Positions 41,094 through 42,285 of a stretch of 64,000 nucleotides of DNA are shown here, piece by piece; positions within the stretch are counted from its first letter, which is position 1; every line of letters starts with the position of its first letter. The DNA is from Gemmatimonadota bacterium. GTDB lineage: Bacteria > Gemmatimonadota > Gemmatimonadetes > Palauibacterales > Palauibacteraceae. The notes below the pieces were generated by a model. That model saw nothing but the letters and a program-made list of their open reading frames with translations, did no database searches and was not told the origin of the DNA. A program made the position numbers and the translations under genes. Location: assembly GCA_965116475.1 (NCBI GenBank), contig OZ220691.1:1440001-1504000 (forward strand), read 5' to 3'.

Positions 41094-41126
41094 TTGTGGT
41101 CGATAACTGGTAGTTATCAACCGCAA
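41094..41126 (+). other. lox-like recombination site, left (TTGTGGTCGATAA-CTGGTAG-TTATCAACCGCAA)
   Basis: 13-bp imperfect inverted arms (2 mismatches) around a 7-bp asymmetric spacer; 41098-41124 is the exact reverse complement of 42255-42281. Confidence 0.85.
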
Positions 41127-41226
41127 CCCGGTCGCACTTATCGCCTTGTTCCAGAGTCACTTATGCAGATTGCGGCACCGGAAAACAGTGAGCGGTCACA
41201 ACCGCCCGGCCACTGGGCGGTCACGC

Positions 41227-42186
41227 ATGGATGAGCGCCGGTGCGGGGATCCGGAGGCCGCCGCCGGCCTCCTCGGCGAGTACCTGGCCGCCGCCGCCGA
41301 CGGCTCGCTGAGCGGCAACACCGTGCGGGCGCTGAGGGGGGACCTTCAGCGGTTCGCGGCGTGGTGCGCGGAACGGGATCTCTGTCCGCTGCCCGCGCGC
41401 GCGGGGACGGTCGTGGCCTACATCGAAGAGGTGTCGGGCGACCGCGCGCCCGCCACCGTGAGGCGCCATGTCTCGAGCATCGCCGCCGTGCACAAGGCGG
41501 CCGGGGAGCGGAGCCCGTCGGAGCATGCCGCGGTGCGGCGCGCCCTCGCGCGGATGCGGCGGCGGAAGGGGTCCCGGCAGACGCAGGCGCTGGGCCTGAC
41601 CTGGACGCTCCGCCGGCGCCTGATCGAGGGCGGGGGCTCCCGACTCATCGACGTCCGCAACCGCGCGATCCTGGCCGTGGCCTACGACGCCATGCTGCGC
41701 CGCTCCGAGCTCGTCGCGCTCGAAGTCGTTGACGTGAAGGTGGATAGGGGAGGATCGGCCTCCGTCCTCGTGCGCCGGGCGAAGAACGATCCGGAGGGCG
41801 GCGGGGCGGTGCTGTACCTACACCGCGACACCGTGAGGATGCTCAGGGAGTGGCTCGGCGCGAGCGGGGTCGGCAACGGGCCGCTCTTCCGCGCCGTGCG
41901 CAAGGACGGGCGCGTCGGCGCGGCTCTCCATCCGGGCCAGGTGCCGCGCATCTACAAGGCCATGGCCCGGCGCGCCGGGCTTCCGCCGGAGGTGGTGCGC
42001 CGGCTCTCCGGGCACAGCCCGCGGGTAGGCGCGGCGCAGGACATGATCGCCTCGGGCATCGAGCTGCCGGCGATCATGCAGGCCGGGCGCTGGAGGAACG
42101 TCCGCATGGTCCAGCGCTACGGCGAGCGCCTGCTCGCGAAGCGCAACGGAGCCGCCCAGCTGGCCCGGCTCCAGAAGCGCCGCTAG
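41227..42186 (+). CDS. Cre-like tyrosine site-specific recombinase
   Basis: SAM-like N-domain (NT.RAL..D...F..WC); catalytic YDAMLRRSEL (R), RRAKND (K), SGHSPRVGAAQDM (HxxR), AGRW (W), MVQRY (Y), paralleling Cre motifs SGHSARVGAARDM/AGGW/VMNY. Confidence 0.92.
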   Translation: MDERRCGDPEAAAGLLGEYLAAAADGSLSGNTVRALRGDLQRFAAWCAERDLCPLPARAGTVVAYIEEVSGDRAPATVRRHVSSIAAVHKAAGERSPSEHAAVRRALARMRRRKGSRQTQALGLTWTLRRRLIEGGGSRLIDVRNRAILAVAYDAMLRRSELVALEVVDVKVDRGGSASVLVRRAKNDPEGGGAVLYLHRDTVRMLREWLGASGVGNGPLFRAVRKDGRVGAALHPGQVPRIYKAMARRAGLPPEVVRRLSGHSPRVGAAQDMIASGIELPAIMQAGRWRNVRMVQRYGERLLAKRNGAAQLARLQKRR

Positions 42187-42208
42187 AGATACGCCGGGCA
42201 CGGATATT

Positions 42209-42237
42209 TTGGACGGATGACTCCGGCGGGTTATCGT
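42209..42237 (+). promoter_or_regulatory. Putative sigma70-type promoter inside the invertible segment, facing outward
   Basis: TTGGAC (42209-42214) - 17 bp - TATCGT (42232-42237), just inside the right recombination site. Confidence 0.5.
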
Positions 42238-42252
42238 TGCCACCGGGTACGA

Positions 42253-42285
42253 TAGCGGTTGATAACTACCAGTTATCGACCTCTA
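42253..42285 (-). other. lox-like recombination site, right, inverted (TAGCGGTTGATAA-CTACCAG-TTATCGACCTCTA on + strand)
   Basis: Same 13-7-13 architecture; spacer CTACCAG is the reverse complement of the left spacer CTGGTAG. Confidence 0.85.

Follow-up and report, generated by a model that had tools for sequence, protein, structure and literature searches.

A Cre-type recombinase gene between its own inverted lox-like sites: a probable self-inverting cassette beside a giant adhesin-like gene in Gemmatimonadota

Introduction

The DNA analysed here, referred to as the window, is a stretch of 64,000 nucleotides from a Gemmatimonadota bacterium (GenBank assembly GCA_965116475.1, contig OZ220691.1, positions 1,440,001 to 1,504,000 of the forward strand), and coordinates are those of the window unless a relative's locus is named. 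It contains a gene for a Cre-type tyrosine recombinase that is enclosed by two inverted lox-like sites and flanked by a giant adhesin-like gene on the left and a hybrid sensor-regulator gene on the right. This arrangement raises the question of whether the recombinase inverts the segment that carries its own gene and, if so, which neighbouring gene the inversion would serve. Comparison of the sequence with its relatives indicates that the segment is very probably a self-inverting Cre-type cassette. The wider reading, in which this self-contained cassette acts as a phase switch for the adhesin within a repeated, horizontally spreading module of sponge-associated bacteria, is regarded as likely. 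An earlier note on this DNA had proposed the recombinase, its paired sites and the inversion. The present analysis adds a large multi-copy family that crosses phyla, a conserved adhesin and sensor-regulator locus, and the GATAA ends of the site arms.

Identity of the recombinase

The recombinase gene (41227..42186, + strand, 319 residues, likely start ATG 41227) was the only credible gene between the sites. The earlier note had described it as a tyrosine recombinase with an intact R-K-HxxR-W-Y set, and the open reading frame (ORF), the Pfam domains and the alignment with Cre all agreed. The Pfam matches were PF00589 (3.1e-15; 56.8 bits versus a cutoff of 27.1) and the SAM-like N-terminal domain PF02899 (6.2e-05). 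Only tyrosine-recombinase domains were returned, which places the protein outside the serine invertases (Hin/Gin). When it was compared with solved structures, the 17 best matches were Cre or Cre derivatives (E from 1e-29 to 2e-27, over about residues 29-308), followed by XerD at an E of 5e-05.

Identity with P1 Cre was 31.3% with 85% of the query covered, and residues R158, K186, H263, R266, W289 and Y298 aligned with R173, K201, H289, R292, W315 and Y324 of Cre. These catalytic residues were invariant across 31 aligned homologues. The NCBIfam models for XerC, XerD and XerA scored far under their cutoffs (45 versus 335 bits for XerC/XerD), so that by these models the protein is not a chromosome-dimer resolvase. 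Because Cre was the best structural relative, the catalytic set aligned and the Xer scores were weak, the label Cre-type is a tested one and not a mere resemblance. Both domains were closest to Cre, tryptophan occupied the fifth catalytic position, and a simple two-arm site lay near the gene.

Lox-like sites around the gene

An exact 27-bp inverted repeat had been claimed for the ends of the segment, and both reading of the sequence and a mismatch search bore this out: the 27-mer at 41098-41124 recurs as its reverse complement at 42255-42281. Searching the window with up to 3 mismatches gave 2 matches, both at the cassette ends, and 2 or more matches were obtained in 0 of 100 shuffles (mean 0.00). 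A repeat finder lengthened the pair to 32 nt (94%; 41093-41124 and 42255-42286). The left site (41094..41126, 33 bp, no strand assigned) is made up of an outer arm at 41094-41106, the spacer CTGGTAG at 41107-41113 and an inner arm at 41114-41126. The right site (42253..42285, 33 bp, no strand assigned) is inverted, with its inner arm at 42253-42265, the spacer CTACCAG at 42266-42272 and its outer arm at 42273-42285. Both are near-palindromes in which 11 of 13 arm positions pair, so the palindromic 13-7-13 layout with these two spacers, as first described, stood up to inspection. The caveat that the arm/spacer boundary is an assignment was also justified, since 13-7-13, 12-9-12 and 11-3-11 are all compatible and the ambiguity is about 1-2 nt.

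The inner palindrome (7-nt half-sites and 3 central bases) was found in the window only at these two sites (up to 2 mismatches; 0.01 expected), and neither this search nor that with the 27-mer revealed a solo or extra site in the 64 kb. Asymmetry is confined to the 3 central bases, GGT on the left and ACC on the right, and the direction of a site is therefore set by them alone. The possibility that the direction of the spacer with respect to the gene records a flip was considered and ruled out, since the two-fold symmetric structure is unchanged by a flip. No Rfam family matched 40900-42700 at an E threshold of 1.

Paired sites in relatives

The genome set scanned held one genome per species and yielded 376 coding relatives. 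The best 80 of these gave 79 loci, which were fetched with 4-kb flanks. Pairs were scored by a script that required a self-complementary inverted repeat containing a GAT/ATC core, its two arms lying on opposite sides of the gene. By this strict script paired inverted sites were present at 60 of the 79 loci; the yield was 51 of 56 among the closest loci and 9 of 23 in the distant group. The check proposed by the earlier note, that homologues should carry the same flanking sites, has thus been run and gave a positive result. The pair scored in L061, which counts among the 60, is false and spans two tandem cassettes. Among the 19 loci missed, L042 and L070 are cut by record ends, and a pair was found by other scans in L058, L063 and L073 and around the second copy in L059; the sites of L058 and L063 are 4.3 kb apart because an IS21 element lies between them.

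Most relatives have a 13-6-13 geometry with a 2-nt asymmetric centre (GT/AC), and the subgroup of the window is one base longer. The arms vary between subgroups, the two arms of any one site co-vary, and the GATAA that adjoins the spacer is nearly invariant across relatives, which together are the signature of a site co-evolving with the protein that binds it. Excerpts of a study of Cre-type recombinases give a G(T)-A-T(G)-A motif beside the spacer of active sites (PMC10250229), and the GATAA at the arm ends agrees with that motif as given there. The earlier statement that arms and spacer are unlike loxP consequently holds for the sequence and fails for the grammar, the GATAA adjoining the spacer as in Cre-type sites. 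Orthogonality of these sites to loxP is plausible.

One difference between relatives was of another kind. The cassettes of L057 and L063 (left sites at 3860) are 98% identical, yet the central dinucleotide of the spacer is AC in one and GT in the other at both ends, with the rest of the site unchanged; such a reversal is not a product of ordinary inversion.

Distribution of the family

The protein search gave 1666 matches among 8000 scored candidates, and identity was 68-100% among the 120 matches listed. Host names of the relatives included Gemmatimonadota (Candidatus Palauibacter, Longimicrobiales), Vicinamibacterales, Latescibacterota, Candidatus Poriferihabitaceae, Poribacteria, Caldilineaceae and several proteobacterial groups. 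Several of these names, as distinct from sample records, suggest sponges. Phage records gave 30 matches, all below 60% identity; among the matches listed, all 12 phage entries were P1-type or related phages in which a gene annotated as cre showed about 31% identity. Plasmid records gave 2808 matches, again all below 60%, the best being 48.9% in Methylobacterium. The lox-like pair was absent around the gene in both of the 2 plasmid loci examined (L080, L081), which confines the self-flanked layout to the closer subfamily.

Two recombinase copies were present within a single 9-kb locus in L059 and in L061 (3807-8515). Those of L061 form tandem cassettes, the first of which lacks a right site. 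Foreign mobile elements were seen inside several cassettes: in L032 (2456-3960) a 1.44-kb insert breaks the recombinase gene, in L071 (about 1073-3990) the insert is about 2.9 kb, and in L058 and L063 (about 5000-7500) it is an IstA/IstB pair of the IS21 type.

Evidence for inversion

Both orientations of the cassette were found among related loci, with breakpoints at the inverted sites that bound the segment. L038 and L043, from different genomes, have cassettes that are 92% identical in the same orientation between flanks that are 97% and 88% identical and reversed, and the changeover falls inside the 32-bp sites. When L032 and L042 were compared with L054, the cassette was 97-99% identical and the flank was 99% identical and reversed. 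Within a single genome, L073 differs in the same way from L068 and L069 (cassette 94-95%; flanks 97% and 82-89%, reversed). In the distant subgroup L073, and also L057, is reversed relative to L068, L069, L065 and others.

The comparison of L042 with L054 is informative about mechanism because the four arms of L054 differ from one another. The regulator-side site of L042 combines two arms of L054, the outer one from its right site and the inner one from its left site, in a hybrid junction that fits crossover in the spacer. Re-insertion of an entire element, ends included, would not predict it. Scored by the regulator gene, 43 of the 79 loci have the orientation of the window, the gene being downstream and co-directional; 3 have the opposite one, with the gene upstream and on the other strand; 4 hold remnants, and 29 are without a regulator (21 of these in the distant subgroup). 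The claim that the segment flips in place has therefore gained both orientations and a hybrid junction in related loci; this support is comparative and does not extend to the window locus itself. The original likening of the cassette to hin/hix, with an enzyme of the Cre type, describes its mode of working fairly.

The alternative that survives best is that the cassette is mainly a small transposable element, a tyrosine-recombinase insertion sequence bounded by its inverted repeats, and that its two orientations are independent insertions into a preferred target. It would suit the many copies per genome, with at least 8 loci on OZ241969.1 and at least 7 on CBDCKJ010000003.1, and the position of some distant copies beside unrelated housekeeping genes. 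It would also suit the maximum-likelihood tree of 77 recombinases, where 3 Acidobacteriota and 2 Latescibacterota entries fall inside the Gemmatimonadota clade with strong support and the recombinase of the window groups with that of Ca. Palauibacter irciniicola. These Acidobacteriota and Latescibacterota entries lie on megabase contigs; the out-of-place entries L064 and L066 lie on contigs of 5-6 kb, for which mis-binning is possible. When L013 is compared with L012, L014, L033 and L035, homology sets in precisely where the left site has its outer edge (3894), which also speaks for it. This sharp boundary is equally explained by recombination between sites of different copies: several copies within one genome share identical sites, so recombination between them could shuffle the flanks, which would explain why homology starts at the left site in some copies.

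Against an insertion sequence, Cre-type enzymes acting on identical core sites in inverted orientation yield inversion and not excision, and the junction in L042 keeps the outer arm of its flank and swaps the inner arm only. No direct repeats that would mark a target-site duplication were visible beside the sites in the fetched loci inspected, and the window has no solo site. Conservation in the main family extends beyond the cassette to about 90-120 nt on its right, to the 2.3-kb regulator gene and to the opening codons of the left-hand gene. An insertion sequence is accordingly considered unlikely, and self-inversion by the enclosed recombinase is retained as the explanation of the two orientations.

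Proposed regulatory output of the cassette

The left neighbour of the cassette is a giant adhesin-like gene of 3059 codons (31888..41067, - strand) that diverges from it, with its ATG 26 nt from the left site. The protein contains seven SWM_repeat domains together with Cadherin-like, Calx-beta, fn3 and LRR domains. A divergent ORF of at least 120 residues beginning 6-164 nt from the left site was present at 33 of 35 loci, and 20 of the 26 left-flank ORFs scanned had SWM, Calx-beta, fn3, cadherin-like or LRR domains. Giant proteins that combine cadherin, fibronectin, Calx-beta, LRR and SWM repeats are characteristic of the symbionts of sponges, in which they are presumed to establish contact with the host; to our knowledge nothing is known of how such proteins are controlled in these uncultured bacteria. 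As the adhesin ATG is only 26 nt from the left site, a ribosome-binding site fits in the interval and a promoter of the gene's own, outside the site, does not.

Two pattern matches at the right end of the cassette bear on its possible output. An outward promoter-like element (42209..42237, + strand; TTGGAC, 17 nt, TATCGT) lies at the 3' inner end, and its pattern (TTGNNC/TTGACN, 16-18 nt, a TATCNT-like hexamer) is conserved in the subgroup of the window and in a middle subgroup. The right site itself would form an RNA hairpin which, together with the T-run that comes after it, makes up a terminator-like feature (42257..42291, + strand); within the window's subgroup, about 9 of 10 loci have such a T-rich run. 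The left side of the cassette has no T-run. One further match, a leftward sigma-70-like promoter pattern (41093..41120, - strand; TTGATA, 16 nt, CACAAT) inside the left site, was the sole promoter-like hit in 40950-42550 (0.2 expected) and was not conserved beyond the closest relatives. A promoter embedded in the site was ruled out as the switch, being rebuilt almost intact after inversion and not conserved.

The proposed mechanism is as follows. The recombinase would bind both of the 33-bp sites that enclose its own gene, with one monomer per arm, and, the sites being opposed, synapsis and strand exchange in the spacers would invert a segment of about 1.16 kb. The outer arms would remain with the chromosome, and the inner arms would move with the recombinase gene. 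The flip would serve as a phase-variation switch for neighbouring genes. In the orientation of the window, transcription of the recombinase gene and the outward promoter-like element would be aimed at the regulator side and stopped by the terminator-like feature at the right site, the regulator being driven by its own promoter outside the cassette. In the flipped orientation, transcription from the cassette would reach the adhesin gene without meeting a terminator-like feature. Given the lack of room for an adhesin promoter, the outward element and the terminator-like feature on the right, the adhesin may be OFF or low in the orientation of the window and ON after a flip; expression of the adhesin in the flipped state is a tentative assignment, which we consider slightly easier to doubt than to accept.

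Several observations weigh against a self-inverting cassette that switches the adhesin. The orientation of the cassettes is heavily skewed (43 versus 3), and the evidence for inversion lies between genomes or paralogues and not within the window locus or a living population. The flipped examples are themselves imperfect: L032 has a recombinase gene disrupted by its 1.44-kb insert and one inner arm that differs at 3 positions from the prediction based on L054, L038 and its partner L043 both have a degraded regulator gene, and L042 is cut by a record end. The regulatory output rests on consensus patterns and gene spacing. The first hexamer of the outward element is absent from the largest subgroup (L012-type), a stricter promoter scan did not flag this element, the T-run is limited to the window's subgroup and absent in other loci, and the sigma-70-like match in the left site would outlast a flip nearly unchanged. 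The neighbours in the distant subgroup (L057-L079) are mixed and include a sugar kinase, a solute-binding protein, a GcvT-type enzyme and three adhesin-like genes; such ordinary neighbours are a poor fit with a dedicated adhesin switch.

A second alternative accepts the inversion and assigns it another target, namely the sensor-regulator or the recombinase itself, or no regulatory role at all, the cassette being a selfish passenger. The right neighbour is a hybrid histidine kinase/response regulator of 782 residues (42475..44823, + strand; GAF-PAS-HisKA-HATPase-REC-winged helix), for which the likely TTG start at 42475, in an ORF open from 42436, was deduced from a GGAG-N-TTG conserved in an alignment of 35 loci. 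No other partner is linked to the cassette as tightly: the regulator adjoins it in 46 of the 79 loci at 68-89% identity, and nucleotide homology to the window spans the recombinase gene to the regulator end (about 41276-44792), beyond which it ceases. In the common orientation the outward promoter-like element points towards the regulator, and excerpts of work on Clostridioides difficile describe a signal-transduction operon that is phase-varied by a tyrosine recombinase (PMC6837544). Set against this, the regulator has its own promoter-like pattern outside the cassette (42353..42381, + strand; GTGACT, 17 nt, TATCCT), with hexamer columns conserved in at least 80% of the 35 loci, and in the window's subgroup the terminator-like site shields it. 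The gene without room for a promoter is the adhesin, and a switch acting on the regulator, on the recombinase or on nothing is judged improbable, with the adhesin kept as the proposed target.

It is very improbable that the palindromes are merely operators or terminators of the recombinase gene, with the true substrate elsewhere, such as a dimer-resolution or integration site: the right site with its T-run was flagged as terminator-like, the overlap of the left site with promoter-like sequence would suit autoregulation, and the nearest plasmid-borne relatives (48% identity) have no flanking pair in either of the 2 examined, but flipped cassettes break inside the sites and form one hybrid junction, the arms co-vary in a Cre-type geometry, and the T-run occurs in one subgroup only. 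Such a role is moreover compatible with being a crossover site, as operator and crossover roles are combined in one site by hixL and the hin promoter.

Comparison with known systems

The cassette belongs to the Cre-type recombinases and is not within any described inversion system. It shares with Cre/loxP, Dre/rox, Vika/vox and the YR series the fold family, the catalytic set and a site of two arms of about 13 bp and a short asymmetric spacer near the gene, and with Cre-type sites, as described in excerpts of PMC10250229, a GATA-like motif at the arm ends beside the spacer. It differs from Cre/loxP in its 31% identity to Cre, in arms that are unrelated in sequence and in a spacer of 6 or 7 nt (8 or 9 with shorter arms) where loxP has 8. 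Two inverted sites surround the gene here, whereas a single site lies beside it in Cre/loxP, and the present systems are chromosomal, multi-copy and linked to host genes, whereas Cre/loxP is found on phage or plasmid.

The Salmonella Hin/hix H-segment and the Gin, Cin and Pin systems likewise have the recombinase gene inside a segment of about 1 kb that is inverted, and in the H-segment an outward promoter at the far end drives the adjacent surface-protein gene in only one of the two orientations. Hin, Gin, Cin and Pin are serine recombinases and depend on an enhancer and Fis, whereas the present enzyme is a tyrosine recombinase; the working is similar, and the cassette is not a member of that group. 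Flp/FRT of the yeast 2-micron plasmid also has a recombinase gene that lies between inverted targets and turns over together with the segment. The role of Flp is amplification of the plasmid, the repeats are 599 bp long, and the system is not a minimal one-gene cassette between regulatory flanks. The hsdS inverton of Streptococcus pneumoniae (PMC7096588) likewise places the gene of PsrA (CreX) between its own inverted targets, within the inverting segment; it shuffles coding halves of a restriction-specificity gene and is not a minimal one-gene cassette either.

FimB/FimE with fimS, RecV of C. difficile and the invertible promoters of Bacteroides resemble the proposed switch in that short promoters are flipped beside genes for surface structures or signalling by tyrosine or serine recombinases; papers on such systems include PMC6083910, PMC5386303 and PMC6837544. 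Their recombinase genes lie outside the invertible DNA, often acting on several switches in trans, and their repeats are short and not lox-like, whereas here the enzyme is inside each switch. No description of a self-flanked Cre-type cassette was found in the literature searched, subscription journals and supplements being outside its scope. The Palauibacterales genome paper (PMC10469786) does not contain 'recombinase', 'integrase', 'invers', 'two-component' or 'eukaryotic-like'.

A more far-reaching proposal is speculative, and we think it rather less probable than its negation. Sponge-associated bacteria from several phyla would share a horizontally spreading module, with many copies in each genome, that consists of a giant eukaryotic-like adhesin gene, a self-inverting Cre-type cassette and a dedicated hybrid sensor-regulator. 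Each adhesin would be switched stochastically and largely independently by its own recombinase, and nature would incidentally have supplied a collection of Cre/lox-type pairs that differ in their arms, have 6- or 7-nt spacers and in some cases are orthogonal to one another. If this were true, the module would be an antigenic-variation-like system for dealing with the host, and the combination of a private flip switch with a sensor-regulator would make the control of giant proteins testable from existing long-read metagenomes. The cassette would then be the tyrosine-recombinase counterpart of the Hin H-segment, a Cre-type invertase with site direction given by 2-3 central bases. The family would offer dozens of natural recombinase/site pairs, which searches limited to 8-bp spacers, as portrayed in excerpts of PMC10250229, would miss.

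Other features of the locus

Upstream of the recombinase gene lies an ORF of 23 codons (41163..41234, + strand) whose TGA overlaps the recombinase start codon (ATGGATGA). The ATG homologous to that of the upstream ORF is the start of a 328-residue recombinase in most relatives, and the alignment places the N-terminal stretch of the recombinase in another frame in the window's subgroup. The upstream ORF could serve translational coupling or be a leftover.

Upstream of the promoter-like element of the regulator are two direct GTGA(G/C) repeats in conserved columns (42310..42325, + strand), 11 nt from start to start. This is the usual repeat spacing of OmpR/PhoB-type sites, on which basis the repeats are predicted to be a binding site of the regulator's winged-helix domain. 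The leader at 42388-42475 has conserved complementary stretches (CTCCAC ... GTGGAG) and GC-rich hairpins and gave no Rfam match. The regulator is missing in L010 and L013 (about 5100-5130), where homology stops at the second promoter hexamer and CGCTATC is replaced by CGCTGGC. Directly after the regulator of the window, an ORF of 1187 codons (44977-48540, + strand) had no Pfam match and was not conserved beside the module in relatives; it may be no real gene, since the DNA is GC-rich.

The 5' part of the giant gene contains long, diverged direct repeats at 39000-40720 (109-148 nt, 61-88% identity), which are taken to be SWM repeat units on a match at the protein level and not by coordinates. 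Two more large proteins are encoded nearby, at 28348-31818 (+ strand) and 48012-51119 (- strand); they have LRR and bacterial Ig-like domains, and one matches Peptidase_M66 as well. The region around the cassette is rich in eukaryotic-like surface proteins.

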